Below are positions 1-21,018 of a stretch of 64,000 bases of DNA, in pieces. Position 1 is the first letter of the stretch; every line of letters begins with the position of its first letter. Both the position numbers and the translations under genes were made by a program. The stretch is from a virus (Duplodnaviria > Caudoviricetes): the IMG/VR virus record IMGVR_UViG_2862830631_000005, positions 1-64,000 of that record, one strand, 5' to 3'. Under the pieces are notes generated by a model, which ran no database searches, had not been told where the DNA came from, and was given only the letters and a program-made list of their open reading frames with translations.

Positions 1-66
1 ATGAGCGCGGGTGTCAGCCTGCGCTTTTGCGTGCCTACACGAGGCACGACAGGGAAGGGAACGACA

Positions 67-531
67 ATGCGCATTCACAGCAACGTCTTGACTGAGCAGC
101 ACTTTTACGAGGCGGCCATCGCTGCCGGTGTGACAGTCGTTGGCGTCCACCGACACGGGTCTAGGTCACGGGAACGTGCCTATGACTTCGGCATATCCGG
201 CAGTGGGCGCAGTGGCGGCCAGTGGGGGCATCGGGACTACAAGTCCGCAACGTGGGATGAGTGGGGCATCTTTCTCGCACATCTGTTCGAAGTGGACCAA
301 GATGCCCACACGGGCAAGCATGGCTATCTGTCGGCGGATCATTTCCACTGGGTGACAGGGGACCGATTCCGCTACCTCACGCCAGATGGGCAGCACAAGC
401 GTCACAACTGGCTCTCGGGAGACCATCGCGGCACGTCTGCGACCGGTTCCTACTGGGTCCAGTCGTGCGCCTGCGGTGCGATTCAACGATCGGTAAAGCA
501 CGGCCATAGCTGGGCTGAGATTGCAGCCTAA
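67..531 (+). CDS. hypothetical phage protein
   Basis: ORF; ATG at 67 follows GGGAAGGGA RBS. Confidence 0.7.
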   Translation: MRIHSNVLTEQHFYEAAIAAGVTVVGVHRHGSRSRERAYDFGISGSGRSGGQWGHRDYKSATWDEWGIFLAHLFEVDQDAHTGKHGYLSADHFHWVTGDRFRYLTPDGQHKRHNWLSGDHRGTSATGSYWVQSCACGAIQRSVKHGHSWAEIAA

Positions 532-614
532 CCGGGCAGGGTGAGCAGTAGTTAGCATTCCTAACTATTGCTCGCCTGGTGCGGTTAGACACCAACCATG
601 GGAAGGGGATAGCG

Positions 615-881
615 ATGCGTTACCTACTGACAACCAAGCTGTACGACGAAGACATCGTCACTAGCGAGTTCGACACGCGCGACGCGCTACTGGGTGAGCT
701 AATGCAACTCAGCCGGGAGTGCCGTTGGTACTTCGACACCGCCGACCTAGACCCGGTTACGGGGACGTTCTTCGGTGGCATCTACCAACCGCGCACCGGT
801 AAGGCCATTGGGATGTACAGCTACCGGGTGCACATGACGGAGTCCGACCGATTGCCGTCTGGTGCCGACATTCTGGGCTGA
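615..881 (+). CDS. hypothetical protein
   Basis: ORF with GGGAAGGGG RBS. Confidence 0.7.
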   Translation: MRYLLTTKLYDEDIVTSEFDTRDALLGELMQLSRECRWYFDTADLDPVTGTFFGGIYQPRTGKAIGMYSYRVHMTESDRLPSGADILG

Positions 882-1151
882 TCAGGCAGGGGAGGTTACA
901 GGGGTAACTCTGTAACCTCCCTGGTGTGATTAGACACACGAACCTCCCCGAGCTTTCGACTTGGGGAGGGGGAAGGAGACAAACCGATGATGACCCTAGA
1001 GGTAATCGGTTTGGTTCTCGCACTACCGCCGGCCATCTGGGCAACTTTCGAGCTGCTCAACCGTCGGAAGTAGTTGCGAGGCCCTGGTCACGGTTGTTAC
1101 CGCAGCCGTGGCCAGGCTCCGACCCTCAATATACACGGGAAGGGTAGAACA

Positions 1152-1424
1152 ATGGCAATCAACACTGAGGGCCCTTGGGTTGACGTTGTGTTCCTGCAGG
1201 GCGACGACTACGACGAAATTGCAGACATGGGCATCGATGAGATGGCCGCACACATGGCTCAATGGGATGACGGACAGGAAACCGATTACGCGCACACCCG
1301 CGAGGTTGCGTCGTGGGGATCTGATGACCGGCTTTACGAGGTCAACGTAGACGGCATCGATTACGTGATGTCCGCTAACTACGGTTTGGGCTACGCATCA
1401 CTGAATCGCCGCCCGCTGGGTTAA
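1152..1424 (+). CDS. hypothetical acidic protein
   Basis: ORF with GGGAAGGG RBS. Confidence 0.7.
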   Translation: MAINTEGPWVDVVFLQGDDYDEIADMGIDEMAAHMAQWDDGQETDYAHTREVASWGSDDRLYEVNVDGIDYVMSANYGLGYASLNRRPLG

Positions 1425-1502
1425 GTCAACGGTAGGCACACAAACATGGGTGTTGTGTGCCTATAGATGGACTTAAACCATCAACAGGGAAGGGATGAAA
1501 CA

Positions 1503-1838
1503 ATGGAGTACACAATCGGTGACGCGGCGGTGACTGTCGAACATGAAGGGTCGGACTTTGACCCTGATTTTCGCGCCTACCGTCAGCGATACACATACAC
1601 CATTACCACACCCGAATGGCAGTATGTCGACAACGATATTCGTTCGGGCTGCGATGCTGAGGTGGATGTGGCCGATGCATCACGCACACTATTCTCGTTT
1701 CTCAGTGCATGCGCTGAGTCTCGCAGCTACGGGGGCGGCGAGAACTATGACTTGTTCCCCGAACATGTTGGGGGATGGGCGGAAGAGAACAGCGACGAAC
1801 TGTCGATGCTGTCGATTGATCCGGCGGAACTCGATTAG
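1503..1838 (+). CDS. hypothetical acidic protein
   Basis: ORF with GGGAAGGGA RBS. Confidence 0.7.
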   Translation: MEYTIGDAAVTVEHEGSDFDPDFRAYRQRYTYTITTPEWQYVDNDIRSGCDAEVDVADASRTLFSFLSACAESRSYGGGENYDLFPEHVGGWAEENSDELSMLSIDPAELD

Positions 1839-1935
1839 ATAGGGAGGGGATTACTTAGTTTCTCGCAGATGTATAGCGAACCTAGGTAATCCCTGCTGTA
1901 CCTAATCAGGAAACATGGGAAGGGACTGGACAAAA

Positions 1936-2193
1936 ATGGATCCGAACGTAGCACTTGCTGAGGCATTAGCCGGAAACAGCCAAGCTGTCAAGGATTACAA
2001 CGCGTGGATTCAGCGCGGAGGGTTCGCGTCGCGCGTGTCAATTGACCCCGAAACTGATCTATTCATGCGCGGCGTTAAATACGCTGAGGTCCGATGGATC
2101 GGACGCAAGTATGTGACCTTGACCGAAGAAACGGTTCGCGGTCGCTACACTGGCAAGCTTTCCAGGGATCGGGTTACTCCAATTGGCAACTAG
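1936..2193 (+). CDS. hypothetical protein
   Basis: ORF with GGGAAGGGA RBS. Confidence 0.65.
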   Translation: MDPNVALAEALAGNSQAVKDYNAWIQRGGFASRVSIDPETDLFMRGVKYAEVRWIGRKYVTLTEETVRGRYTGKLSRDRVTPIGN

Positions 2194-2444
2194 ACAGGGA
2201 GGATGGCACGCGAGCATCGTTGTTCGCGTGCCGTCTGCTGTGTCTAGCAGCGCATACACGGGATCGGGTGGGTTACCGCTCGGGTCGTGAGATCAATGCA
2301 CTAGTGGACAGGCTGGCTATGTCTGGCCTGAGGTGGCGCAAGGTCTAAGCGCCGCGCACTACATGCGGAGTCTTGGGCCGGCGAGCGACACGTCGTCCCA
2401 GCTGCGGTAGTCGAACTCGATAAGTCTGGGAGGGTGTACGCCTA

Positions 2445-2567
2445 ATGGTGTGCGTGGAGTGTTACTCAGCCGAAGCTGCTCCCGGTGATGACTTGTGTGA
2501 CTTGTGTAAAGAGATCCGCGAGCGTGAGGCACGCGAAGATCTAGAGGAACTGAGACAACGAGTGTGA
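2445..2567 (+). CDS. 40-aa Cys-rich protein (CxxC..CxxC)
   Basis: MVCVECYS...LCDLCKE; GGGAGGG RBS; below the ORF-track size cut-off. Confidence 0.5.
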   Translation: MVCVECYSAEAAPGDDLCDLCKEIREREAREDLEELRQRV

Positions 2568-2646
2568 GTAGGGAGGGTGAGTCACAGACTTGTGCTGTGA
2601 CTTGCCTGCTGTACTCACAGCAACACACACGGGAAGGGAAGTCACC

Positions 2647-2844
2647 ATGATTGTTTGGCTAGTGGCTATCAATCATCACGCAAGCGGGTTGAACGCTACA
2701 GCGCACAGGACTCAGGTCGACGCGTTCGCGTATCTTCGCCAGCTCTATGCGGTGCCTGATTATCTGGCATTGCAGGATGTATTGGGCTGGATCGGCGCGA
2801 ATAGCGACGATGATGTCCTGGTCGACTATGACGAGATCACCTGA
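2647..2844 (+). CDS. hypothetical protein
   Basis: ORF with GGGAAGGGA RBS. Confidence 0.6.
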   Translation: MIVWLVAINHHASGLNATAHRTQVDAFAYLRQLYAVPDYLALQDVLGWIGANSDDDVLVDYDEIT

Positions 2845-3061
2845 GCATGGAGGGGGTTGCACGGCTGTGGGTATGACCTGCATCCGCGCATCCCCTGCTG
2901 TCAGCTCAGGCAGCACACACGCGGGAAGGGACGAACATGAACGTAGACATTCGGGAACCGAAGTCCACCACAGCACCTACACACGGAGAAGAGCCCATCG
3001 GCCTGCATGGTCGGTGAGCTCTTTGCTGTCGGTAGGCAGCGCACACGGGAAGGGGTTAACC

Positions 3062-3184
3062 ATGGAACATGACGAGGATCCGGAAACTTACGAAGTTACT
3101 CCGGAGATCATGGCAGCCATAGACGTTCTGGCGAACACTCAGAGGTGGTCCGTCAAGGATAACGTGACGGGCGATTGGTACTGA
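3062..3184 (+). CDS. small hypothetical protein
   Basis: ATG after GGGAAGGGG RBS. Confidence 0.5.
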   Translation: MEHDEDPETYEVTPEIMAAIDVLANTQRWSVKDNVTGDWY

Positions 3185-3242
3185 TCAGATCGGTGCCATG
3201 CAACCGACGAAAAAGGTCAAACACACTGGAAGGGAACGGCAA

Positions 3243-3416
3243 ATGGACATTCCTCATGACATACCACAACAAATCGAGATAGTGAAGCTGGCCAAAGCTG
3301 GCGACGACGCGGCGATCGAAGCGATCAACGCACTCCCCGATGGGTCTTGGATGCGTAACGCGCTCGCTGACCCGGGATGGCCAGAGTCACCACGCAGGTA
3401 CCCAACCTACGCGTGA
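3243..3416 (+). CDS. small hypothetical protein
   Basis: ATG after GGAAGGGA RBS. Confidence 0.55.
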   Translation: MDIPHDIPQQIEIVKLAKAGDDAAIEAINALPDGSWMRNALADPGWPESPRRYPTYA

Positions 3417-3639
3417 TGACGAAATGCACTGGTGAGTAGGCAGGGGACACAGCGGGGGTAACTCGTTGTGTGCCTGGTGTGCTCACACCTAGGGTGAGAG
3501 TCGACTTATGGGCGCCAAGTGGCTTGCAGTGACTCACTGTGCGCGGCAACCCCTTCCCCCGCTTGCGGCGGTGGGTTATTCGCCACCTGGCACCTTTATG
3601 TCGACTCTGACTCTGTTAATAGTGGGAAGGGGTCAGGGA

Positions 3640-3921
3640 ATGTTTATCAGGAATTTCGCACGTCACGGCGGCCACGAGTTTGTCCGCTCGGGTAAACGGT
3701 GGCCGTACGCCATAATCATGACCATAAAAGACTCGAGTACGGGCGAGCTGGGCGCAACAGTGCAGTGGGCTAGCACACTCGAACGTGCAGAGAGGCAGTA
3801 CAACGCCGACATGTCACGATGGACCCGGGTTCGCAACGGTGAGTCATTGCGCGGCTTGTACTCGACGGCCTTCTATCAGAGCGTGACCGACATTGTGATT
3901 GTCGGAACAACTACTGAGTAG
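3640..3921 (+). CDS. hypothetical protein
   Basis: ATG after GGGAAGGGG RBS. Confidence 0.55.
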   Translation: MFIRNFARHGGHEFVRSGKRWPYAIIMTIKDSSTGELGATVQWASTLERAERQYNADMSRWTRVRNGESLRGLYSTAFYQSVTDIVIVGTTTE

Positions 3922-3999
3922 GCAGGGTGCACAGCAGTTCTTCGGACCTGTTGTGCGCCTGGTGGATTCACGACCATCAACACTAGGAAAGGGAGAACA

Positions 4000-4683
4000 T
4001 TGGACAAGAAACAGAAGGTGACCGACAAGGTTGCCAAACTGCTACGCCAAGCCGAGGACGTGGCCGGGACACCCGAAGAGTCGGTGTTCCAAGCCAAAGC
4101 GTTCGAACTGCTGGCGAAGTACGGGTTGGACATGGCGCAGGTGGACGCCAAGCGCGCGAACCTAGACATCTCCGATATGCCTGACGCGATCCAGTGGGCC
4201 GCAAACCTCACCGGCACATACCAGTCCGCGCAACTGCTGCTGCTGAACGGAATCGCAAGAGCTCTGCACTGCCGGTGCGTCTGCACCCGCACTAACAGTT
4301 CGTACGTGGTGAACGTCTTCGGGATGGAACGGCACATCGAGCGTGTGAAGTTCCTGTGGGGCATCCTGCAGCCGCAGATGATGCGACAGGTCAAGTTGGC
4401 ACACCCCGGATACTACGGTGGCGGTGTCAAGTCCTATCGGCGGGCATGGATTGCCGGGTTCGCCAACACGATCGGTCAACGCGTGCGGGAACAGGAAGAC
4501 AAGGCTGTGACCGCGGCCGGTGCCCTCGTGCTCTACAAGGGGGACTCGCAGCGCGCCGAGGCTGCACTTCAGAAGGCATTCCCTGAGGCTCGCGACAAGC
4601 GGCAGTCGAACTACAACCGCAGTGGTTGGGAGGCCGGCGCCGCCGCTGGACGGAGCGCGCAATTCAATCGGGCTATCGCTTAA
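4000..4683 (+). CDS. DUF2786-domain protein
   Basis: N-terminal KVAKLLRQAE...PEE...AKAFELLAKYG helical motif typical of DUF2786. Confidence 0.75.
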   Translation: MDKKQKVTDKVAKLLRQAEDVAGTPEESVFQAKAFELLAKYGLDMAQVDAKRANLDISDMPDAIQWAANLTGTYQSAQLLLLNGIARALHCRCVCTRTNSSYVVNVFGMERHIERVKFLWGILQPQMMRQVKLAHPGYYGGGVKSYRRAWIAGFANTIGQRVREQEDKAVTAAGALVLYKGDSQRAEAALQKAFPEARDKRQSNYNRSGWEAGAAAGRSAQFNRAIA

Positions 4684-4843
4684 AGGGGGTGTGTTCCATG
4701 TGGTTCTGGATTCTGTTGGGGATCGTGTTCGCCTGCTGGCAGGTGCTCGGTCCCAAGCTCTAGACCCCGCGAGGTAGGAGAGCCCGTCAGTCGAGTACTG
4801 GCGGGCTTTCTGGTCTCTCGGGACCGTTTCACCAGGTCACGGG

Positions 4844-4867
4844 GTGAAACAGGTACGGACATAGATT
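4844..4867 (+). promoter_or_regulatory. GTGAAACAGGT site + N7 + -10 (TAGATT); candidate promoter of the operon leading to the guide arrays
   Basis: Genome-repeated 11-mer 7 nt upstream of a TANNNT hexamer. Confidence 0.55.
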
Positions 4868-4887
4868 CACAAAGCGAAGGGAGAACG

Positions 4888-5103
4888 ATGTCACTACATG
4901 TAGACGGGCCGAGCTGGGCGCACTGCGACCGATGCGGCTACTACCACAACGAGTCCATCGACTGCACGTATGACCCGTTCGATGACATGTGGGAGTGCGT
5001 CGGGTGTGAGGCCCTGATCTCTCGGGGCGATTGGTGCGAGGACTGCGCTGGCATGGAGTCATTCGCTCACTACCTACAGGAGACAGGGAGGGCATACCAG
5101 TGA
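4888..5103 (+). CDS. Cys-rich (zinc-binding) hypothetical protein
   Basis: Three CxxC motifs; GAAGGGAG RBS. Confidence 0.6.
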   Translation: MSLHVDGPSWAHCDRCGYYHNESIDCTYDPFDDMWECVGCEALISRGDWCEDCAGMESFAHYLQETGRAYQ

Positions 5104-5255
5104 AGGTTGAGTTGACCGCCGAGGAAGCTGGCGTGGTGCAGTATGCGCTCGAAACGCAGGCCGTCCGGTACAGCTATGACCCGTACTACAAGGCGCAGCG
5201 GTCACTTGGGCGTATCTGCGAGACGGTGGCTGCCCGGATAGCTGAGGCGTCATGA
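5100..5255 (+). CDS. small hypothetical protein
   Basis: GTGA overlap with upstream stop; GGGAGGG RBS. Confidence 0.5.
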   Translation: MKVELTAEEAGVVQYALETQAVRYSYDPYYKAQRSLGRICETVAARIAEAS

Positions 5256-5322
5256 GGTACGCGTGGGCGTTGTATGCGTCACTGCCGGCATGGATTGCGG
5301 TCCTCACGTATCTGGTGGCTTC

Positions 5323-5559
5323 ATGAGTAGTGGCGATCTGGAGGTGTGCGAATCAAACCGCCTCCTCTGGCAGATCAAGGCTATCGGGGCCAGGGCGCGC
5401 GGCGACTTCGAGGAGGAGTCCGCGGCGCTGCAGGCACTTCGCATTCTCGACACCACCTGTCCTCGCTGTACTGAGAGGCCGTCACTGGTCTACGACGGCG
5501 AGACTGGCCAAAGGCTGCCAGTTTGCAATGGGCCCAACGGTTGTGGGTACGGGACATGA
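5323..5559 (+). CDS. hypothetical zinc-ribbon protein
   Basis: CPRC...CNGPNGC; ATGA-coupled to next gene. Confidence 0.5.
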   Translation: MSSGDLEVCESNRLLWQIKAIGARARGDFEEESAALQALRILDTTCPRCTERPSLVYDGETGQRLPVCNGPNGCGYGT

Positions 5560-5852
5560 ACACGAAGCGCAGGTGTAAGCCGGAGACCGATGACCGCATA
5601 TACGAGTTCCACATTCCTGGGCGTACGACCCTTATCCCAGGGACCGAGGTATCCATTCAGGGCAAGCGTGGTCGGTACCGATTCCGCTACGCACGCAAGA
5701 CATCCCAGGGCAAGGATGAACTCACCTTCGTTGGCGGGCGGCTCGACGGCCAGGGGGAGAAGTTTGTGTCCGTCTACCCCGAGCGGGTGGCGCGGGTGCA
5801 CCGAACCGGCAAGACGTTAGTGAGCATCACGAAAGAGAAGTCCGGCAAATGA
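5556..5852 (+). CDS. hypothetical basic protein
   Basis: ATGA overlap with upstream stop. Confidence 0.6.
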   Translation: MNTKRRCKPETDDRIYEFHIPGRTTLIPGTEVSIQGKRGRYRFRYARKTSQGKDELTFVGGRLDGQGEKFVSVYPERVARVHRTGKTLVSITKEKSGK

Positions 5853-5853
5853 G

Positions 5854-6000
5854 ACTTGCCAGGGGAGGACAATGAACGGACCCCGCAACCCGCGGTCAAA
5901 CGAGAACCACCTCCCCGGCACCAAACTTCCGATAGGCGGGACAGACCATGCCCCCCGCACACTTCGCGGTCGACACTACCGCCCTCGCCTACCGGAACAA
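5854..6000 (+). ncRNA. stem-loop dual-spacer guide array 1 (2 units), TIGR-like
   Basis: Units 5854-5924 and 5925-6000: ACTT, outer stem, ACA-N9-CC, inner hairpin, TC(A/G)-N9-C(A/C), outer stem, A(C/A)CAA. Confidence 0.8.
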
Positions 6001-6026
6001 CCACGAAAACAGAAGGGATCAAACAA

Positions 6027-6491
6027 ATGTCACTGTCCACACTGATCAATCAGGTAATCGAAGAGCACCCCCTGTCGAACCCGTGGGATGTGGCCGAGAT
6101 GGTCGCGAAGCTCACCCCCGACGATGACGCCCGCGCGTTCTACGTCGAAGCACTGGTGCCCAGTGTGCGAATCGCGCTGGCCAACAAGCGAAACGCGGCG
6201 ATCAGTGCGACGCGGCGAACACAGTCCGGATCGCGGCGTCCACAGTCGAGCAAGGTCGACCGGGTGCGTGACGCATGGCAGGCGGCACTTAACGCCCTGG
6301 TGGCTGTCGGTAGCAATGAGTGGAAGCCGCTACGGGAGTGCACCGCCGAAGATCTGCGGGTTGTTATCGATGGGCGGATGCGCCATATCGAGTCGGTGCG
6401 CAGTCAGGTGTCGTATTACGAACGCTTGGTTGATGCGCTGATGGATCAGGATGTGTCGACGGTGGGTGAGCTGTCGGGCCCGGTTTCATGA
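6027..6491 (+). CDS. hypothetical helical protein between the two guide arrays (candidate partner)
   Basis: ATG 6027 after AGAAGGG RBS; its stop overlaps the start of array 2. Confidence 0.7.
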   Translation: MSLSTLINQVIEEHPLSNPWDVAEMVAKLTPDDDARAFYVEALVPSVRIALANKRNAAISATRRTQSGSRRPQSSKVDRVRDAWQAALNALVAVGSNEWKPLRECTAEDLRVVIDGRMRHIESVRSQVSYYERLVDALMDQDVSTVGELSGPVS

Positions 6492-6492
6492 G

Positions 6493-6722
6493 ACTTGCCG
6501 AGCTGGGACAATCACCAACCACCGCAGTTTGCAGCTGCGGCCATGTGGCGCGCACCCGGCTCGGCACCAAACTTGCACACAGCGGGCCAGCACCACAGCC
6601 TCGCCATTGCGCGAACAATGTGACGGCACCCGCTGTGTGCACCAACTTGCCAAGAGTGATGACAGAAGACCTCCACCGCAATTATGCGGTCAACTGGGCT
6701 TGCCCATCACTCTTGGCGTCAA
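6493..6722 (+). ncRNA. stem-loop dual-spacer guide array 2 (3 units), TIGR-like
   Basis: Units 6493-6570, 6571-6644, 6645-6722 with the same architecture; stems differ in sequence but all pair. Confidence 0.8.
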
Positions 6723-6748
6723 CTCACGAAACTGGAAGGGAACCAACA

Positions 6749-7471
6749 ATGTCCGCACTACTCGCAGACCCGACACTCGCCCTCGCCGCAGAAGTGGTGG
6801 ACGACCTCGAACGGGTACGCATCGCCAACGAGAACCGACTCCGCTCACTCACCGACCCTGAAATCTACGGGCTCACCATCCAACACCCAGACGTGCTCGC
6901 ACTCACCGGACTGGTGGAACAACTCAAGGATTCCGAGAAACAAGCCACCAAACACCTAGAGAAGGTGATGGCCCGACACCCACTCGGCACATGGGTGAAA
7001 GGTGCTACGGGAGTGGGTTATAAGCAGGCTGCCAGACTCCTCGCGGCACTGGGCGACCCATACTGGAATGACCTGTATGACAGGCCGCGAACATTCGATG
7101 AACTGTGCGCATTCAGCGGGCTTTCCATCAAGTCCGGCAAAGCGGTGCACAGATCTCGTGGGGTGCAGAGTAATTGGAACCCAGACGCCAGGATGCGGTT
7201 GTGGCTGGTCGCGCAGTCGTGCATCAAAACCAAGGGCGAGTATCGACAGGTGTACGACGCGGGCCGGGAGCGATACGCGGACGCTGTCCACGTTGTGGAA
7301 TGCCAACGGTGTGGTCCGAAAGGTAAACCTGCGCAGCCCGGTTCGCCGCTGTCGGCGGGGCATCAGCACGCCCGTGCGACGCGTCTGATCGTCAAAGCGG
7401 TGCTGAAAGATCTTTGGCAGGCAAGCCGTGCATGCCATGCAACCGCACAACCACAAAAGGAAGGTAAGTAG
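6749..7471 (+). CDS. IS110 Tnp/Nop-fold RNA-binding protein lacking RuvC (TasA-like)
   Basis: Coiled coil followed by GVGYKQAARLLAALGD..FDELCAFSGL..NWNPDARMRLWLVAQS, resembling the IS110 Transposase_20 domain; no N-terminal DEDD domain; GGAAGGG RBS. Confidence 0.75.
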   Translation: MSALLADPTLALAAEVVDDLERVRIANENRLRSLTDPEIYGLTIQHPDVLALTGLVEQLKDSEKQATKHLEKVMARHPLGTWVKGATGVGYKQAARLLAALGDPYWNDLYDRPRTFDELCAFSGLSIKSGKAVHRSRGVQSNWNPDARMRLWLVAQSCIKTKGEYRQVYDAGRERYADAVHVVECQRCGPKGKPAQPGSPLSAGHQHARATRLIVKAVLKDLWQASRACHATAQPQKEGK

Positions 7472-7474
7472 CTC

Positions 7475-7795
7475 GTGGCTCAGTCCCTCATCACCCACAC
7501 CGGGGTCAGCGTGTCCATGCTCAAGGAACGCATCGCCGACCTCACGCACGAACTCGAGGTCGCGCAGGAGGAATACGAGAACGCGCAACCAGTCGAGCCG
7601 CAGTCCATCGGGAGCGTCATCCGGTTCACCAACTGGAACGGCTACCTGTACGCCGCGATCAAGCTCGACAAGGGCTGGTACGTCACACAGGACGGCTCGC
7701 GTTCCGCGCGACAGGGCATCAAGCCGATGACGTGGGAGAAGCTGCTGGAGTGGGTCGGTGTCCGCAACTGGGAAGACATGGAGGTTCTGTCGTGA
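7475..7795 (+). CDS. hypothetical protein
   Basis: ORF with AAGGAAGG RBS. Confidence 0.7.
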   Translation: MAQSLITHTGVSVSMLKERIADLTHELEVAQEEYENAQPVEPQSIGSVIRFTNWNGYLYAAIKLDKGWYVTQDGSRSARQGIKPMTWEKLLEWVGVRNWEDMEVLS

Positions 7796-8055
7796 ACCTT
7801 CACGACCTCGCGAAGCCGGTGACTCCACCCAAGGTGATCAACCCGTTCGCCGGCAGGTGGACACCGGCCCCCAAGGGTGTCACTCCGGGCGCTGTGCGGC
7901 TTTCTGAGGAAGCTGCAGCCGAGTACCTTGGCCTCACCCGCATCGCACTCTCGACGCGGCGCAGGAGGGGAACTGGGCCCACCTACTACATGCACATGGG
8001 CCGCATAGCCTACGACATCGCCGTCCTCGACGCATACAAGGGGATGGGACAGTGA
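7792..8055 (+). CDS. excisionase/MerR-like HTH DNA-binding protein
   Basis: LSEEAAAEYLGLTRIALSTRRRRGTGPTY...IAY winged-HTH pattern. Confidence 0.7.
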   Translation: MNLHDLAKPVTPPKVINPFAGRWTPAPKGVTPGAVRLSEEAAAEYLGLTRIALSTRRRRGTGPTYYMHMGRIAYDIAVLDAYKGMGQ

Positions 8056-8237
8056 CGGCCTGCCCGACACCAAATAAAGTGCGGTACGCACACAAGGGGG
8101 AGGCGTTGCGGGAGATGCGGAGGATTCGCAGCCGAATCAAGCGCACAAAGAAGGCCCGCTACACCCCACTGGTCCCCTACAAGTGTGCGTGCGGCTCCGT
8201 CCACCTCACCTCGAACGTGGTCAGCTGCGATGGTTGA
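8052..8237 (+). CDS. small basic zinc-binding protein
   Basis: CPTPNK..YKCACGSVHLT. Confidence 0.6.
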   Translation: MTACPTPNKVRYAHKGEALREMRRIRSRIKRTKKARYTPLVPYKCACGSVHLTSNVVSCDG

Positions 8238-8269
8238 CGCGTGGACACATCTGGTGGATAGGGACTGAC

Positions 8270-8309
8270 GAAAACCCCGGCAACCTGATAATTAGGGGCC
8301 GGGGTTTTC
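8270..8309 (+). terminator. intrinsic terminator-like hairpin upstream of the integrase
   Basis: GAAAACCCCGG...CCGGGGTTTTC inverted repeat. Confidence 0.6.
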
Positions 8310-8392
8310 CTCTGTCTCCAGAATATTAGATAGGCTAGCAATCCATTAGGAGTGTGAACACGTCAACATTGCCTGGTGTACGATCGGACACC

Positions 8393-9784
8393 ATGAAGAC
8401 CGCCATGTACCTCCGCATCTCCGACATCAAGGTGGCGGGTGACACGCTCGGTGTTGAACGGCAGCGGGAAGACCTAATCAAACTGTGCGAGTCGAAGGGC
8501 TGGGACTGGGTCGAATACGTCGACAACGACAAGTCAGCCAGCAAGGGTGTGCGGCCGGCGTACCAGCGCATGCTCCGCGATATCAAAGCGGACAAGATAG
8601 GTGGCGTAGTCGTCTGGGATCTTGACCGCCTGTACCGCCAGCCGCGCGAGCTGGAAGATCTCATCGACCTTGCCGACGAGAAGCGACTGAACCTTGCCAG
8701 CGTGGACAAGGAGGTCGACCTTGCCACCGACAACGGCCGACTCTACGCCCGCATCAAGGGTGCAGTGGCTCGCAGCGAAGTTGAACGCAAGAGTGCGCGA
8801 CAGGTCCGCGCATTCGAGCAGCTCGCAGGATCCGGCAAGGGCTGGGGCCCAAGGGCATTCGGATACACCGAGGATCACGACAACCCGGGGATAGTGCCAG
8901 CAGAGGCTGACGCTGTGCAGCACGCCTACGCAGACGTACTCGCCGGGGTGTCACTGTATTCGATCGCCAGGCGGTGGAATGACGCGAAACTGTTCACGAC
9001 GAAGAAGAACCGACCCTGGACCAGCGGCAATGTCGCGCGCGTACTGAAGAGTCCCCGCTACGCCGGCTACCGCACATACCGCGGTGAGATCGTCGGCCGT
9101 GGCGATTGGCCGATCCTGGTTCCAGAGGAGACGTGGCAAGCCGTCAAGGCGATACTGGAAACCCCCGGCAGGCAGTTCAAGGGCCCGCGGGTGCGGACAA
9201 GGCTTCTCGGTGGCATTCTGCACTGCGGCGTCTGCGGTGAGGGCTTGGCGACCGGTGTACGCCAACCGAATGTACCCATCTATCGGTGCAAAACTCCAGC
9301 GTGCCACAAGATCTCCCGGAAGGCAGAGCCGATCGAAGAGTTCGTGGAGTACGTCATGGTGGAGAAGTTGAAGACAGTCCTATGGGAGGGCGACAAAGGC
9401 AACAAAGAGAAAGCCGAGGCACTCACCCAGGAGTCGGTCGCGTTGCGGTCCAGGCTCGACGCTCTGGCTGTGGATTTCGCTGACGGTACGTTGACTGCCA
9501 GCCAGATCAAAACTGCGACGCTGAGGATCCAGGAGCGGCTTCATGAGGTCGAGGATGCGTTACGTGGCATGGCGTCGTCATACGTGATGGAAGACATCGC
9601 ATGCGCAGACGATATTGACGCCGCGTGGGCCGCGCTGTCCATCGACCGCAAGCGTGCCGTCATCCAGACGTTATGCCGCTGCATCACAGTCAACCCGCTG
9701 GGCAAGGCCACGCCCAAGGCGCTCCACGGTGAGGGAGTCGTCTTCGACTGGCGTGAGGCCGATGAGTATGCCGATGCGGTCTAG
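8393..9784 (+). CDS. int: large serine integrase
   Basis: YLRIS catalytic Ser, DLDRLYR, recombinase domain, CGVCG..YRC..C zinc ribbon, coiled coil. Confidence 0.95.
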   Translation: MKTAMYLRISDIKVAGDTLGVERQREDLIKLCESKGWDWVEYVDNDKSASKGVRPAYQRMLRDIKADKIGGVVVWDLDRLYRQPRELEDLIDLADEKRLNLASVDKEVDLATDNGRLYARIKGAVARSEVERKSARQVRAFEQLAGSGKGWGPRAFGYTEDHDNPGIVPAEADAVQHAYADVLAGVSLYSIARRWNDAKLFTTKKNRPWTSGNVARVLKSPRYAGYRTYRGEIVGRGDWPILVPEETWQAVKAILETPGRQFKGPRVRTRLLGGILHCGVCGEGLATGVRQPNVPIYRCKTPACHKISRKAEPIEEFVEYVMVEKLKTVLWEGDKGNKEKAEALTQESVALRSRLDALAVDFADGTLTASQIKTATLRIQERLHEVEDALRGMASSYVMEDIACADDIDAAWAALSIDRKRAVIQTLCRCITVNPLGKATPKALHGEGVVFDWREADEYADAV

Positions 9785-9842
9785 CTGATCCTGCGACATC
9801 GCTGGCGACTCGGCGACGATAGCTTTCGCGCGGGCGATGGCT

Positions 9843-15179: not shown

Positions 15180-15342
15180 CGCATCGAAGCAACCCGGGAT
15201 GAGGCGTTCCTCCACCGCGGTCACAGAAGGCCCTGACGCTTCAGAAGAGCCCAGATGAGCATCCCGAGCCACCGCCAGAAAGTGGGGTTTCCCATTGCCA
15301 TGTCGAGTACATTACGGGCCCACCTGTTTCACTCCTGAACGC

Positions 15343-15369
15343 AAAAAACCCCAGGTCAGAGACCTGGGG
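15343..15369 (-). terminator. intrinsic terminator ending the tRNA cluster
   Basis: CCCCAGGTC-TCT-GACCTGGGG-TTTTTT on minus strand. Confidence 0.85.
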
Positions 15370-15375
15370 CTGTTG

Positions 15376-15446
15376 CAGTTCGTAGGGGACTCGAACCCCT
15401 ACCTACAGATTGAGAATCTGGGATGCTGCCTTTACACCAACGAACC
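15376..15446 (-). tRNA. tRNA-Glu(CTC)
   Basis: Cloverleaf, loop TT-CTC-AA, GGTTCGAGTCC T-arm. Confidence 0.9.
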
Positions 15447-15785
15447 ATTGCTGACGACCCACTGGCCGTCATCACGAACCTCCGTCTTAAGGTTCACCGG
15501 CCACATGTCGCGCTCAACTCGGGCCTTCAGAAGCGTCTCCTGGCCACACTGACGCTTCACCCATGTGCGGAACGTTGAGGTTTGCGCCATGCGCTTGAAC
15601 GCCAACCGCTTGTTCTGCAACTGACTGCGCTCATCGCGAGCCTCACCAACGGCGCCGGAAGCCCTGTGAGTGACTCGGACACCGGTTTCCCGCTTGTTCT
15701 GATTCTGCCCACCCTTGCCGCCGGCACGAAATGTGTCGACCTGGCAGTCATCAAGGGTGACCGAGAATGCTAGTTCCATACTCAC
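15432..15785 (-). CDS. GGQ peptidyl-tRNA hydrolase / ArfB(YaeJ)-like release factor
   Basis: FRAGGKGGQNQNK..V..H..ERSQLQNKRLA. Confidence 0.92.
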   Translation of the reverse strand: MSMELAFSVTLDDCQVDTFRAGGKGGQNQNKRETGVRVTHRASGAVGEARDERSQLQNKRLAFKRMAQTSTFRTWVKRQCGQETLLKARVERDMWPVNLKTEVRDDGQWVVSNGSLV

Positions 15786-15860
15786 GTCCCGACGACGGGA
15801 TTTGAACCCGTGTATCCACCTCGACAGGGTGGCGTCCTGGGCCGCTAGACGACACCGGGA
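15786..15860 (-). tRNA. tRNA-Asp(GTC)
   Basis: CCACC-CT-GTC-GA-GGTGG. Confidence 0.92.
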
Positions 15861-15936
15861 TTGTTGGACTTGACGCGTACCTCACGGGTCAACTTTCTGG
15901 GAATCAAACCCTGGAGCTGCTTGACCAAAACTCCCG

Positions 15937-16010
15937 CATTCCGAGCGGGATTCGAACCCGCACTCTCCTGAGTGAAAATCAGGTGGGATGACCAATTACC
16001 CTATCGGAAC
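15937..16010 (-). tRNA. tRNA-Glu(TTC)
   Basis: CCTGA-TT-TTC-AC-TCAGG. Confidence 0.92.
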
Positions 16011-16016
16011 ACAATG

Positions 16017-16084
16017 TGGAGTACCGGGGAATCGGACCCCGCCTCTGAGTTTGCAAAACTCGGAGTCTCACCAGACAGCACCCC
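16017..16084 (-). tRNA. tRNA-Ala(TGC), truncated D-arm
   Basis: G3:U70 pair, loop TT-TGC-AA, T-loop TCCGATT. Confidence 0.75.
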
Positions 16085-16085
16085 G

Positions 16086-16202
16086 TTAAGCCGCCTTCCG
16101 GCGATGTGGACGACCGTGCCCCTTGTTGCGTGCTCCGTATGTTGGAGTCAACGCATGATGATTGGGGCACAGCACTCGCAGATTCGCCCGCGAGTTGTTG
16201 GT
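16086..16202 (-). pseudogene. C-terminal remnant of an HNH homing endonuclease
   Basis: TNNSRANLRVLCPNHHALTPTYGARNKG...* with no N-terminal part. Confidence 0.65.
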
Positions 16203-16241
16203 GTAGGTCTCTTGACGGACCTATTGTGCAAAAAAGAGCTG

Positions 16242-16313
16242 AGCCCCTACGACGATTCGAACGCCGCACGCCGATTTACAAGATCGGAGCTTTTCCTACT
16301 AAGCTATAAGGGC
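16242..16313 (-). tRNA. tRNA-Thr(TGT)
   Basis: CCGAT-CT-TGT-AA-ATCGG. Confidence 0.92.
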
Positions 16314-16314
16314 C

Positions 16315-16385
16315 TGGTAGCCGGTCAAGGAATCAAACCCTGCTTAGTTGGATGTAAGCCAACCTTCGTCTCAGACTAACCAGCC
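16315..16385 (-). tRNA. tRNA-Val(TAC), truncated D-arm
   Basis: GTTGG-CT-TAC-AT-CCAAC; CCA encoded. Confidence 0.8.
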
Positions 16386-16386
16386 A

Positions 16387-16464
16387 TGGAGCATCCGCAC
16401 GGAATCGAACCGAAACTTTCAGGGTGGAAGCCTGACGTGCTAGACCGTTAAACACTACGGACGC
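16387..16464 (-). tRNA. tRNA-Gly(TCC)
   Basis: TCAGG-CT-TCC-AC-CCTGA; TCCA end. Confidence 0.92.
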
Positions 16465-16484
16465 ATAGGTATTCAATTATGTTG

Positions 16485-16551
16485 CGCGACAGGAGGGAGT
16501 CGAACCCCCATCCGACCGCTTAGGAGGCGGCTGGCCGTCCAGTGCTGCCGC
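16485..16551 (-). tRNA. tRNA-Arg(CCT), truncated D-arm
   Basis: GCCGC-CT-CCT-AA-GCGGT; GGTTCGACTCC. Confidence 0.8.
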
Positions 16552-16705
16552 ATCGGACCTTGCTAATGATCTCCAAGTCCTCATACTCGCGGGACTCTTC
16601 GTAATCCCACTCGCGCCGCCACAGACGATCCTCAGCGGCCCGCTGACGCAACGCCAACATGTCACCGCCACAACACCCTCGGCAACACGTCCTACGTCGC
16701 AGCAT
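16520..16705 (-). CDS. small hypothetical protein overlapping tRNA-Arg
   Basis: GGAGGT RBS; stop falls in the tRNA anticodon loop. Confidence 0.4.
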   Translation of the reverse strand: MLRRRTCCRGCCGGDMLALRQRAAEDRLWRREWDYEESREYEDLEIISKVRCGSTGRPAAS

Positions 16706-16727
16706 GGATGACACAGCTACCTCCAAG

Positions 16728-16802
16728 TGGTAGGGACACCGGGTACTGACCCCAGGATGCCGTCTTATCAGAACGGAGTGATAACCATTTCACTATGTCC
16801 CA
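16728..16802 (-). tRNA. tRNA-Ile(GAT)
   Basis: CCGTT-CT-GAT-AA-GACGG; atypical T-loop; CCA. Confidence 0.85.
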
Positions 16803-16803
16803 G

Positions 16804-16877
16804 TAGGCCCAGAAGGAATTGAACCCTCGTCCCCGGATTAAGAGTCCGGTGCTATTCCCAACTTCAGCTATAGGCCC
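16804..16877 (-). tRNA. tRNA-Lys(CTT)
   Basis: CCGGA-CT-CTT-AA-TCCGG. Confidence 0.92.
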
Positions 16878-16981
16878 ATATCCGGCAGTAACGGGGCCGG
16901 GGCCGAGTAGTCTTCAGCCACCCGATGGCCTACTACTACCTCTTTCGTCGTCGCGCCGGGTCAGGGCGGTCGGGATTTGCG

Positions 16982-17055
16982 TACTCGACGCGAGAGTCGA
17001 ACTCGCAAGCACCTGAGTTTGAATCAGGCGGCTTTGCCGGTTTGCCTAGTCGAGC
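16982..17055 (-). tRNA. tRNA-Leu(CAA), short variable loop
   Basis: CCTGA-TT-CAA-AC-TCAGG. Confidence 0.9.
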
Positions 17056-17056
17056 A

Positions 17057-17530
17057 TTACGCCGCAGCTTTCCACGGCTTGTTTGTGTCGCACTGAGAAT
17101 GACAGTTGGGACAGAGAAACCTCAGGTTCTCGGCGCGGTTATCGAGAGGGTTGCCGTCTATATGATCAATCTCCAGAACGATTGGAAGCCCCATCCATGA
17201 ATCATCCAACCCGCATAGCTCACACACCGCTGGACGACCGATCTCGCTCAGTGCGCGGCGAAGGCGTTTGACATCTTCACGGTTACTACCCTCAGGGCGA
17301 ACCACAAGGATCTCAGTGGCCGCCTTTCGGCGGTTTGACGTCCCTCGACCGGCAGTCGTGTTTCGAAAGTGGCTTGTATCCAACCCCATGCGTACCACAC
17401 GATTACGCATATGGAAGTGGCTACCGCCCGCCACCTTGATACCTAGTCTGCGGAGCACGTCTGACATCGACGTGCAACTAGCGACCGCATCCGCCACCTG
17501 GGCGTCGGTATATGTTCTTTGTCTCCCCAT
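17057..17530 (-). CDS. HNH homing endonuclease between two tRNA-Leu genes
   Basis: CELCG..LEIDHIDGNPLDNRAENLRFLCPNCH. Confidence 0.92.
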   Translation of the reverse strand: MGRQRTYTDAQVADAVASCTSMSDVLRRLGIKVAGGSHFHMRNRVVRMGLDTSHFRNTTAGRGTSNRRKAATEILVVRPEGSNREDVKRLRRALSEIGRPAVCELCGLDDSWMGLPIVLEIDHIDGNPLDNRAENLRFLCPNCHSQCDTNKPWKAAA

Positions 17531-17534
17531 TGCG

Positions 17535-17607
17535 TACCGAGGGCGGGGGTCGAACCCGCATACACCTGATTCTAAGTCAGGCGGCTCGCCAGATGGCCTA
17601 CCTCGGC
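17535..17607 (-). tRNA. tRNA-Leu(TAG), short variable loop
   Basis: CCTGA-CT-TAG-AA-TCAGG. Confidence 0.9.
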
Positions 17608-17652
17608 ATATCGGGGAAGCCCCCGTAGTTCGGGATCCCCCCTGTGACCTAT

Positions 17653-17727
17653 TGGAACCGGGAGTCGGATCTGCACCGACGTAGGTCGGCTTTGCAGGCC
17701 GCCGCTTAACTACTCAGCCATCCCGGC
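17653..17727 (-). tRNA. tRNA-Cys(GCA)
   Basis: loop CT-GCA-AA; U73-CCA. Confidence 0.88.
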
Positions 17728-17982
17728 TTGTTCCCACCCCGGCCAATCATGGATGGTGGGAATGCGGCCCTGAGATCCATTCAGAGCCACGTTCACCTGC
17801 AGGGCGTAGGAAAGCCATGGACGAAGGTCATCCACGTCCTCTCCGTTGCCCTCAGCCTCATCTCTGGCAGCCTGCAGGATCTCTGCTATCTGCTGTCGAC
17901 GGGCCACGACGGCCGGATGGCTGTTGAACCATTCGATCGCCGGCTGGAGAAACTTGGGATCTTCCTTCAGCAAGCCAGCCAT
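17710..17982 (-). CDS. hypothetical protein whose stop lies in tRNA-Cys
   Basis: MAGLLKEDPKF...; AGGGGAA RBS. Confidence 0.6.
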   Translation of the reverse strand: MAGLLKEDPKFLQPAIEWFNSHPAVVARRQQIAEILQAARDEAEGNGEDVDDLRPWLSYALQVNVALNGSQGRIPTIHDWPGWEQAGMAE

Positions 17983-17995
17983 CGTTTCCCCTAAG

Positions 17996-18069
17996 TGGTC
18001 AGACCGGACGGGCACGATCCGTCCCCTGCACAGTCACAGTGTGCAATGCTTCCGCTACACCACGGCCTT
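17996..18069 (-). tRNA. tRNA-His(GTG)
   Basis: GCACA-CT-GTG-AC-TGTGC; atypical T-loop ATCGTGC; CCA. Confidence 0.85.
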
Positions 18070-18072
18070 GTG

Positions 18073-18145
18073 CGCCCCTGAAAGGATTCGAACCTCCACA
18101 GGCATGGCTTCGTAGGCCATCGCTCTTCCGTTGAGCTACAGAGGC
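18073..18145 (-). tRNA. tRNA-Arg(ACG)
   Basis: ATGGC-CT-ACG-AA-GCCAT. Confidence 0.92.
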
Positions 18146-18181
18146 AGTTGAGCTTTAACCATCTGCTTTATTAGATTGCAG

Positions 18182-18529
18182 TTAGCGCAAAGGGTTTGAT
18201 ACCCTTCCGGCCAACCGCGATTCCTTAGCTGCTGGCCGCTCCTGGCTAGCAGGAGCAAGCAAGCACAACGCTCGATGCAACCAAGTAGCAGCCGCTAAGA
18301 GCCCGCCATCCGGGTCGTCCACCGCATAACACGGCAGATCACCAAACTTCTCACGGTACATCTCGATAGCAGTGGCATGCCCGCCCTCATAAGACCAACC
18401 GATGAACGCGCACGCACGCTCAGCCTCAGCCGTAGAAGGCAAGGGCCCCCAGAAGTCAGGCACGGCGCTGCCACCCATCCATTTCCATCTGACTGCGATG
18501 CGAACGGTGGTCGTCATCGTCATAACCAA
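18182..18529 (-). CDS. hypothetical protein
   Basis: ORF only. Confidence 0.4.
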   Translation of the reverse strand: MVMTMTTTVRIAVRWKWMGGSAVPDFWGPLPSTAEAERACAFIGWSYEGGHATAIEMYREKFGDLPCYAVDDPDGGLLAAATWLHRALCLLAPASQERPAAKESRLAGRVSNPLR

Positions 18530-18728
18530 CCGAAACGCAAATCAGGTACCAACCCGGCTTAACCCAAAGCTCAAGGTTCTCGCCGTGAACATTTAACCCA
18601 CTATCCTCGGCGACATACAGCAGGGCGTCAATCGACCGCTTAACAGCGTCGGGCGTCATAGCGCTATGACAGGCGTGATAAAAGAAATGCTTCTCAGGCA
18701 CACTCGGCATGAAACAACTCCCCCGCAT
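18456..18728 (-). CDS. hypothetical protein
   Basis: ORF only. Confidence 0.4.
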   Translation of the reverse strand: MRGSCFMPSVPEKHFFYHACHSAMTPDAVKRSIDALLYVAEDSGLNVHGENLELWVKPGWYLICVSVGYDDDDHRSHRSQMEMDGWQRRA

Positions 18729-18757
18729 ACTCGGCGACCATCTTCTTTGATTCCATC

Positions 18758-18831
18758 TGGTTGCGCAGCTGGGATTCGAACCCAGAGCCTCGGCTTATGA
18801 GACCGAGATGTTCCCCTTACACTACCGCGCA
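18758..18831 (-). tRNA. tRNA-Met(CAT)
   Basis: TCGGT-CT-CAT-AA-GCCGA; CCA. Confidence 0.92.
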
Positions 18832-18887
18832 ATATCCGGATTGGTTCGCCTCTCACCGGCATCGAGGAGTGGTTTCCACTTCATACG

Positions 18888-18962
18888 TCGGAACGCTTGG
18901 ATTCGAACCAAGGGCCTCCCGGGTTTCAACCGGGCGCTCTCACCTCACTGAGCTACGATCCG
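18888..18962 (-). tRNA. tRNA-Phe(GAA)
   Basis: CCCGG-TT-GAA-AC-CCGGG. Confidence 0.92.
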
Positions 18963-19040
18963 AGGAGTCCCACCCATTCATGCCAGCCCCTCTGGCAACC
19001 TGTATTCACTCTTAGTGGCCACCAGGCGGGTGGGGGTAAG

Positions 19041-19126
19041 CGGAGGGCTGTGGGCACGATCCACACGGGTTGTCTACCGCGCACCCCTTAGCAGGGGGCC
19101 CCAGCTCCCTGGCTGGTTAGCTCTCC
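19041..19126 (-). tRNA. tRNA-Ser(GCT)
   Basis: GCCCC-CT-GCT-AA-GGGGT; long variable arm. Confidence 0.85.
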
Positions 19127-19260
19127 AAAGTTCCCGGTCGCTCTGCCAGTTGAGACGTATACCCCTGACGCACCAACAGTCCTTCGCGCGAACTAGGTGT
19201 TGGCTCCCACCGTGCACGGCAGGCGACGAGGGCAGGTGGATTCGAACCACCAACCACCAG
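19127..19260 (-). ncRNA. circularly permuted tRNA mimic (YrlA/Y-RNA-like)
   Basis: Order 5' CTGGT, T-arm GGTGG TTCGAAT CCACC, acceptor 3' strand, insert, acceptor 5' strand, D-arm, ACCGG 3'. Confidence 0.7.
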
Positions 19261-19263
19261 TTG

Positions 19264-19352: not shown

Positions 19353-19409
19353 AGATGCCGGTCGAGTTGCTTTTACCCTGCGCCTCCCCGGCTTGTGGCG
19401 CAGCATGTG

Positions 19410-21017: not shown

Positions 21018-21018
21018 G

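Follow-up and report, generated by a model that had tools for sequence, protein, structure and literature searches.

The 64,000-nucleotide stretch of DNA analysed here, referred to as the window (positions 1 to 64,000 of the IMG/VR virus record IMGVR_UViG_2862830631_000005), starts with an arm of small genes between which copies of one element recur. It is an RNA module that recurs between the cistrons of an operon in a Cluster-M-like prophage. In the 5' to 3' direction the module consists of a 7-bp basal stem, a conserved core, an upper hairpin that is variable and at least 12 bp long, a short linker rich in C and A and an unusual start-associated Shine-Dalgarno word, which is GGAAGGG here. 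All ten copies lie within window positions 526-4824, at gene boundaries and upstream of a serine integrase gene, and the structure is strand-specific, being formed on the mRNA-sense strand. Stem-loops of this kind are already in print for Cluster M phages; here a prophage carries them, and both a core pair and the ribosome-binding site (RBS) word are variants. The function tentatively favoured below, as possible rather than probable, is that of RNase III-type processing sites that would leave protected RNA ends.

Nine copies had been recognized in an initial annotation of the sequence, and all nine are present, on the + strand only (Table 1). The tenth, at 4764-4824, was absent from that list and was found with the covariance model R2 described below. 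Each of the ten folds as described, with minimum free energies (MFE) of -30.1 to -43.7 kcal/mol and z-scores of -4.2 to -9.9, and none of 200 shuffled sequences was as stable. A simple definition of the element (GNAGG, 24-60 nt, CTGN'T, with N pairing with N' and at least five of six pairs above the core) yielded 11 matches on the + strand, nine of them inside 1-4900, and none on the - strand, compared with a mean of 0.74 and a maximum of 4 matches on both strands in 100 dinucleotide-preserving shuffles. The matches at 41607 and 45658 look like chance. The upper stem of copy 7 is similar to that of copies in the phages Reindeer and Nanosmite, and a coreless hairpin of like architecture (1424..1481) is possibly a decayed copy.

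The covariance model R1 was seeded from five window copies because MAFFT alignments of nine and of six copies misplaced the 5' core in the longer copies. It recovers eight of the nine copies listed initially, missing that at 2976, and 11 copies in the right arm of the Cluster M phage Rey. The model R2 was built from 40 sense-strand matches in six genomes, namely the window and the phages Rey, Bongo, Reindeer, Nanosmite and MrMagoo, and recovers all nine listed copies and the tenth. Homology is thus seen both ways, as the window-only R1 finds the Rey copies and the mostly phage-derived R2 finds all those of the window. At E≤1e-8, R2 reveals 9-13 copies in each of the right arms of the five phages. 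All of them lie at gene boundaries on the strand that is sense for the leftward genes and precede a conserved ribosome-binding repeat. No antisense match to the hairpins was obtained in the window and its flanks at E≤10; the sole R2 row on the - strand of this region is weak and unrelated (15333-15380, E 1.1). Elsewhere in the 6.2-Mb host genome, nothing was found at E≤0.001 among the 150 of 1387 first-look candidates that were scored, and 150 other genomes of the same family also contained no match. The comparison with Rfam 15 gave no match at the gathering score in window 1-5000, and in E-value mode (E≤5) it gave two unrelated weak matches to long non-coding RNAs.

A motif scan of IMG/VR yielded 33 stretches. 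Seven were left out of the R2 search because they are named Cluster M phages, and nine of the 26 that were searched matched at E≤0.001. Matches at E≤1e-8 are present in eight IMG/VR contigs (L016, L017, L023, L028, L029, L031, L042 and L044). A degenerate motif pattern was also tried on genome contigs; its matches, at least 120 of them, each single and in unrelated taxa, were read as chance. CRISPR-like or TIGR-like arrays were rejected as an identity of the element because the "spacers" are protein genes.

The anatomy of the element was counted over 96 matches at E≤1e-8, 94 of them distinct, from 14 sources. This cut-off drops weaker sense copies, including those at window 2975-3037 and 4764-4824; the six main sources hold 71 sense rows at E≤0.01 and 60 at E≤1e-8. 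In alignments fitted to the model structure, 90.0% of the cells of the 94 distinct copies are paired, compared with 65.6% after shuffling and 39.7-44.3% after sliding, and changes on both sides are seen in 21 of the 24 modelled pairs, so that the covariation extends to the homologues. From the base upward, the six rows of the core are a variable pair (G.G in 43, G-C in 25, C-G in 18 and others in 10 of the 96 copies), a G.U pair (93, plus A-U in 1), a covarying pair N-N' (G-C in 58, U.G in 22 and C-G in 14, unpaired in none of 94), an A.G mismatch (95 of 96), a second G.U pair (86; A-U in 7 and G-C in 1) and a G-C pair (87; A-U in 7). The core has a fixed place, separated from the base by 7 bp and from the loop by at least 12 bp. 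A near-invariant irregular core at a fixed place implies recognition of the sequence as well as of the shape.

The exception-free covariation between the two internal strands that had been noted in nine copies holds over ten times as many, and the C-G/G-C pair deduced from it is real, with U.G added as a third state; because the copies fall into subfamilies, the N-N' pair records few independent events and the whole helix many. Among the 14 sources, the C-G state is restricted to the window and to L023, L029 and L031. Four window copies use it, in contrast to the five Cluster M phages, where it is unseen. The "5x5 internal element" is a helix rather than an open loop: in the MFE structures, two 1x1 mismatches (G.G and A.G) flank a two-pair step 7-11 pairs above the base. 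A variant copy is common to four phages (L004 13138-13198, L005 9108-9168, L007 10084-10144 and L001 8294-8354); it retains the 3' strand TGGTG, and its 5' strand, which differs, can instead fold by itself into a small CTGAG...CTCAG hairpin.

The sense strand folds better than the antisense strand in 95 of the 96 copies, by a mean of 11.65 kcal/mol, and the variable pairs of 60 copies comprise 999 Watson-Crick, 71 G.U and 25 A.C cells. This strand bias, together with the excess of G.U over A.C, favours an mRNA structure over a duplex-DNA site or a bottom-strand DNA hairpin. It speaks against a DNA-level element, either a recombination linker or cassette boundary (attC-like or a "boundary sequence") or a protein-binding palindrome, which would explain the mosaic gene content of the arm and which we regard as very improbable. 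The gene content of the arm indeed varies among relatives while the modules persist, and the nucleotide homology to Rey (window 1489-1849) starts at the RBS word of one gene and breaks off within the 5' core of the hairpin that follows it; the stretch similar to Rey gene 172 thus ends in copy 3, at 1849. The location of this mosaic joint, inside a 5' core, suggests an additional use of the conserved words as joints for recombination, which is probably a by-product. On the other side, mosaic joints may result from the conserved words in this incidental way, and the agreement between the 5' and 3' halves of each copy shows that exchanges within the element are rare. Moreover, the near-invariant G.U pairs would be C.A on the other strand, and the only recombinase seen is the serine integrase.

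A DNA parallel is the attC site of integrons, an imperfect palindrome that follows each promoterless small gene in a one-way array beside an integrase; its basal stem is conserved, its centre irregular and its top variable. The element shares these features. True attC sites, however, recombine as a folded bottom strand, carry R-box words and depend on a tyrosine integron integrase. The element was therefore rejected as an attC site because of its better-folding sense strand, its basal strands CTGAR.../...YTCAG, which lack R-box words, and the serine rather than tyrosine nature of the integrase. Unlike attC cassettes, each unit also carries a conserved ribosome-binding word. In the hyperplastic regions of T4-type phages, PeSL cassettes (early promoter plus stem-loop) are repeated modules that flank small open reading frames (ORFs) and may double as recombination joints. 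The modules resemble them as repeated regulatory units beside many small ORFs in a mosaic region but contain no promoter, and their core is conserved as RNA pairs.

The 3' strand of the core has a second partner. Its reverse complement stands directly after the 3' basal strand, covaries with the core and gives a hairpin of 5-7 bp: the 3' cores TGCTG, TGGTG, TGGTC, TGGTT, TGCTC and TACTG are followed by CAGCA, CACCA, GACCA, AACCA, GAGCA and CAGTA, respectively. A full five-of-five complement, with G.U allowed, was found within 10 nt in 53 of 85 distinct 3' segments, compared with 4.1 (maximum 9) when partners were swapped between core types and 7.8 (maximum 14) in shuffled sequence. Segments of this type follow eight of the ten window copies, in which an RNA beginning at the 3' core strand is predicted to form a hairpin from its first or second base with -6.0 to -9.8 kcal/mol; of the exceptions, copy 3 is weak and copy 8 folds otherwise. 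The small 3' hairpin and the lower half of the long hairpin are mutually exclusive. According to the folding predictions, the module has two folds, either the long hairpin or the upper hairpin plus the small 3' hairpin, and since the small hairpin is much less stable than the long one, it would matter only with the 5' strand removed or occupied. A pseudoknot between the basal stem and the small hairpin was discarded because it would have no loop nucleotides to bridge the helices. The alternative hairpin would fit the processing site combined with a 5' stabiliser of the initial annotation, the interpretation of which is supported in part, and a switch driven by the ribosome would explain it equally well.

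Processing is ranked first because the size, the place and the irregular centre of the hairpins match RNase III sites in phage early mRNAs. The early mRNAs of T7 and of the Bacillus phage SP82 contain such sites between their early cistrons, in the form of irregular hairpins of about two turns that share an irregular centre within each phage; cleavage of one strand leaves a hairpin at the 3' end of the upstream RNA. The window elements are likewise predicted to form irregular hairpins of about two turns between cistrons with a common irregular centre, and with at least 24 pairs and two 1x1 mismatches they have the shape expected of an RNase III site, an irregular helix of at least about 20 bp with an internal mismatch or loop. 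Three features are not known from the T7 sites, namely the number of at least ten per operon, the stop codon that lies in the stem at a fixed register and the covarying second partner of the 3' core strand. In the proposed sequence of events, the long hairpin would act as a processing site on a polycistronic mRNA, and a double-strand-specific endoribonuclease, with host RNase III as the prime candidate, would nick the 3' strand of the mismatch-bearing core. The upstream cistron would then end in the upper hairpin, which would protect its 3' end. The downstream cistron would begin with the 3' core strand, the pairing of which with the downstream partner would create a 5'-terminal hairpin that protects the 5' end and sits just before the open linker and the RBS. 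A cut at this site would provide each cistron with a 3' and a 5' hairpin, so that the second helix would gain a lasting job, and the T7 early-mRNA design would be realized at every gene boundary.

Several observations weigh against processing. One is the position of the upstream stop codon. In 87 of the 96 copies a stop triplet (TGA, TAG or TAA) begins 7 nt ahead of the first core G.U, and in 57 copies it is the actual stop of the longest upstream ORF; in the remaining copies the stop of this ORF is located at -3 (11 copies), -6 (1), -11 to -21 (24) or +1 (2), and one copy has no long ORF upstream. In the window and the five phages, which together hold 60 of the copies, 44 ORFs extend as far as the element, and 38 of these terminate on the -7 triplet. 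The 5' strand of the basal stem hence usually carries the stop of the upstream gene. The earlier statement that the copies mostly start at the upstream stop needs to be qualified: six of the ten window copies have it in the basal stem in a single register, whereas the copy at 3914 uses an overlapping TAG and the genes at 3432 and 2976 end elsewhere. The distance from the hairpin to the RBS word is loose: in most copies it is 11-16 nt, in L017 it falls to 1-5 nt, and in a second group it rises to 36-64 nt and, in a single case, to 138 nt. Since the stop register is fixed and this distance is not, the hairpin belongs to the 3' end of the upstream gene. Processing alone does not explain the stop register, which points to the ribosome, and the full downstream complement leans mildly in the same direction, being present in 49 of the 70 in-register copies versus 12 of the 26 in which the stop is further upstream. 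In addition, the copies are paralogues as well as orthologues and were aligned to the model structure, so that the cell counts given above overstate the independent events. For RNase III of E. coli, rules of cleavage in vivo are given in PMC6212723.

The stop register is explained solely by a two-state switch that is driven by the terminating ribosome and serves re-initiation or translational coupling over a gap of about 90 nt, akin to shunting or bypassing; we consider such a switch a doubtful possibility. A ribosome with the stop codon in its A site would cover the next ~12 nt, according to the textbook size of its footprint, and would thereby melt the basal stem and the core but leave the upper hairpin folded at the entrance of the mRNA. 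The 3' core strand thus released would pair downstream, and the stop and the next RBS would be kept next to each other across the foot of the upper hairpin. The covariation of the alternative helix would suit this mechanism, as would a weak, wobble-rich core that is easily exchanged and the finding that junctions without a module mostly join overlapping or closely abutting genes. A purely mechanical device, however, would need neither an invariant A.G nor near-invariant G.U pairs; the Shine-Dalgarno region is hidden in neither fold, which leaves no evident on/off logic; the spacing between stem and Shine-Dalgarno word varies as described; and the stop lies elsewhere in 26 of the 96 copies. Rather doubtful is the more specific proposal that the ribosome at the stop melts the lower helix only, that the 3' strand is caught by its partner and that the ribosome is passed across the intact upper hairpin to the next Shine-Dalgarno word, which would be a bacterial counterpart of shunting or bypassing used at least ten times per operon. 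Selenocysteine insertion was rejected because TAG and TAA are also found at the stop position. A protein with an RF-1 domain that resembles release factors is annotated just before the integrase, alongside the cluster tmRNA, in Reindeer (L005 1001-1153) and Nanosmite (L006 654-998) and could be relevant if the hairpins affect termination. The 26-codon ORF 2937-3017, which has a good start-associated word, starts 27 nt past copy 6 and ends in the 3' arm of copy 7; its translation would melt copy 7.

GGAAGGG, the Shine-Dalgarno word on the far side of the linker, occurs 13 times on the + strand of the window, and 11 of these words, all within 1-6750, stand 6-11 nt before a start codon. The downstream word of the window is GGGAAGGG, that of the five Cluster M phages ACACGGAGAAGGGA; the phages carry ACACGGAGAAGGGA after their hairpins and the window its shorter relative ACACGGGAAGGG. 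Three downstream RBS words are found among the IMG/VR contigs, the window-like ACACGGAAGGGA, ACAAGATTGGAGA and plain GAAGGAGG, but all these contigs share one hairpin core. The host 16S gene ends with ...CACCTCCTTT followed by CT, and GGGAAGGG can be paired by eye with the last eight bases of 16S rRNA through five Watson-Crick and three G.U pairs. This eight-base pairing may explain why the word differs from the standard Shine-Dalgarno sequence. In Rey, two hairpins stand back to back (L001 10751-10875), and the 5' arm of the second resembles the conserved ribosome-binding repeat (ACGGAGAAGGG), so that the repeat is sequestered in a stem at this site.

The near-invariance of the core in 94 distinct copies, across phages with three different RBS repeats, would also be expected of an operator that is bound and not cleaved. 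A phage or host protein could recognize the G.U/A.G/G.U/G-C core and time or shut off translation of the operon, or the copies could titrate a host protein. We consider this unlikely. No RNA-binding or nuclease domain was found in the operon, as eight of nine window proteins scanned against Pfam had no match and none of ten compared with PHROGs had an RNA function; the alternative 3' hairpin would be left unexplained. The ribosomal protein S15, whose rRNA site has a G.U/G-C step beside a purine mismatch, is a speculative candidate. By eye, helix 22 of the host 16S rRNA has G.U and then G-C beside a purine-purine mismatch; this mismatch, however, is G.G and not A.G, and neither an S15 leader nor any other Rfam family matches. 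A GGAG nuclease like T4 RegB was rejected because cores of the C-G and U.G types have no GGAG.

Quite unlikely, in our estimate, are passive hairpins that block 3' exonucleases, insulate the RBS or, lacking a U-tract, attenuate weakly. Bacteria often have stabiliser hairpins between cistrons, and the very stable folds, beside which the linker and the Shine-Dalgarno region are predicted to be mostly unpaired, would serve this purpose. A passive role, however, calls for neither a conserved core nor a fixed stop register, nor for a second partner that covaries; the interval to the next gene is too short for a promoter, and no promoter-like sites were found between the genes. The element had been described as lacking a U-tract and therefore as an atypical terminator. 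This was borne out, as C/A-rich sequence follows every copy and no terminator-like site was found on the + strand of 1-5000, where intrinsic terminators were rejected since no U-tract follows a G+C-rich hairpin.

Cluster M phages contain the conserved repeats CR1-CR4, and stem-loops have been reported in the 2021 announcement of Estes and Aziz (PMC7953290). In the right arm they are located upstream of the repeats CR3 and CR4 (Pope et al. 2014, J Virol 88:2461, as cited in PMC7953290). These stem-loops are the same element as that of the window: in all five phages alike they lie between same-strand genes of an arm that ends in the integrase gene. The prophage and the Cluster M phages further have in common the serine integrase (40-41% identity), three right-arm proteins, a tRNA array and tmRNA. 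Literature searches for Cluster M repeats, for CR3/CR4 and for RNase III with mycobacteriophages, supplements being outside their scope, found nothing in print on a function of the stem-loops, and the 2021 announcement was the sole description found. The start-associated sequence (SAS) and extended start-associated sequence (ESAS) of Cluster K phages are another conserved word at the RBS of many non-structural genes. According to two papers (PMC3203893, PMC12699233), about half of the SAS copies are preceded by an imperfect inverted repeat with a variable spacer, the ESAS, with arms of 17 bp and a spacer of 4-13 bp; all copies have one orientation, the authors saw little support for an mRNA hairpin, and the function was still unverified in 2025. 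The 13-bp SAS consensus has no match in the window with up to two mismatches allowed. The sequences are unrelated, and the window hairpins, unlike SAS/ESAS, show overwhelming compensatory changes and a link to the upstream stop.

The window corresponds to G000:C178:29115-93114 of a 6.2-Mb assembly with 69% G+C. From about 29 kb to about 110 kb of the contig, the G+C content drops from 0.68-0.74 to about 0.58-0.62. High-G+C ORFs, by eye aldolase-like and cation-efflux-like, lie left of window base 1, and adenylosuccinate synthetase (purA, by Pfam) at the far, right end of the element. The window start is one end of a prophage of about 81 kb because of the G+C drop and the host-type genes on both flanks; no direct repeat of at least 13 bp common to both prophage ends was found. 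All genes in window 1-9800, from the host junction to the integrase, are on the + strand, and this arm corresponds to the leftward-transcribed right arm of Cluster M genomes. The integrase gene (8354-9784, by tblastn and PHROGs) has the strand of the hairpins; its tblastn match at 8381-9757 shows 40-41% identity to the integrases of Bongo and MrMagoo, and homologues of Rey gp172, gp153 and gp149 were found on the same strand. At the nucleotide level, Rey is the sole megablast match for window 1-6000 (window 1489-1849, 82.3%, versus Rey 80858-81217), and these 361 bp alone match any phage record. The arm, which alone was compared, thus falls short, among the records searched, of the nucleotide similarity that defines Cluster M membership, and judged by its sequence the prophage is a Cluster M relative.

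At window 1 the host-prophage junction immediately precedes the first gene of the hairpin operon, the far end of which, with the serine integrase, is about 8.4 kb away; integration therefore parts the operon from its upstream region in the free phage. Coordinates tied to this layout are window 1 and 8354-9784, L002 ~8900-9115 and L003 16672-17970. The window contains 21 tRNA genes in an array at 15376-21947 (-), tmRNA at 21391-21831 (-) and, inside the array and next to the tmRNA, a GOLLD RNA match at 20147-20575 (-; 162.1 bits, gathering score 150) with a nested tRNA at 20438-20510. The long non-coding spacers after copies 4 and 8 (2248-2444 and 3487-3639) each fold into a large extra structure, which after copy 8 is a long imperfect hairpin at ~3493-3620. 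The word ACTTGC(C/A) occurs four times on the + strand within 800 nt (5854, 6493, 6571 and 6645), three times inside the 258-nt gap before the gene 6749-7471 (PHROG 4285, labelled transposase), and may be another repeat family or an operator set.

Table 1. Hairpin copies and related features of the window (core span, first core G to end of 3' core; bits, R2 score; MFE in kcal/mol)
Feature	Position	Strand	Core (5'/3')	Core span	Stop codon and remarks	Bits	MFE	z
Copy 1	528..588	+	GGCAG/TGGTG (C-G type)	535-581	upstream stop TAA 529-531 in basal stem	55.1	-41.1	-8.55
Copy 2	878..933	+	GGCAG/TGGTG	885-926	stop TGA 879-881 in basal stem	62.3	-39.8	-8.30
Copy 3	1833..1907	+	GGGAG/TGCTG (G-C type)	1842-1898	stop TAG 1836-1838	50.5	-31.8	-4.88
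Copy 4	2190..2247	+	GGGAG/TGCTG	2197-2240	stop TAG 2191-2193; followed by 197-nt structured spacer	60.9	-43.7	-9.92
Copy 5	2563..2619	+	GGGAG/TGCTG	2571-2611	stop TGA 2565-2567	60.9	-35.9	-6.67
Copy 6	2841..2909	+	TGGAG/TGCTG	2848-2900	stop TGA 2842-2844	38.5	-38.6	-4.18
Copy 7	2976..3036	+	CGGAG/TGCTG	2984-3028	A-U replaces G-C above core; overlaps ORF 2937-3017	33.8	-35.0	-5.54
Copy 8	3432..3486	+	GGCAG/TGGTG	3439-3479	TGA 3433-3435, not the stop of gene 3243-3416; followed by 153-nt structured spacer	51.1	-35.6	-6.98
Copy 9	3914..3971	+	GGCAG/TGGTG	3921-3964	gene stop TAG 3919-3921	55.4	-30.1	-4.42
Copy 10	4764..4824	+	GGTAG/TGGTC (U.G type)		after 21-codon ORF ending TAG 4761-4763; E 2.2e-5	24.9	-40.4	-5.72
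Alternative 3' hairpin, example	577..594	+			TGGTG pairs with CACCA just past basal strand; RNA from 577 folds from first base		-6.2	
Start-associated GGAAGGG	601..607	+			word scan; others start at 53, 1138, 1488, 1918, 2632, 2924, 3048, 3228, 3625, 6734			
Hairpin of like architecture, coreless	1424..1481	+			between two genes; no R2 match		-22.4	-3.54
Unrelated intergenic hairpin	1074..1132	+			junction without motif		-31.2	-4.56

The hairpins and the start-associated word are predicted to organise the expression of a whole arm of small genes in large temperate actinobacteriophages and prophages, and Rfam has no family for these stem-loops. Their anatomy offers precise experiments, as it combines an invariant A.G between wobble pairs, a covarying pair with three states, a fixed stop register and a covarying 3' hairpin. 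The modules could serve as gene insulators in synthetic mycobacterial operons. If the hairpins are substrates of RNase III, they would be the actinobacterial counterpart of the early-mRNA design of T7 and SP82 and a source of rules for the mycobacterial enzyme. If, instead, the ribosome drives a switch between the two folds, the mechanism would be new.

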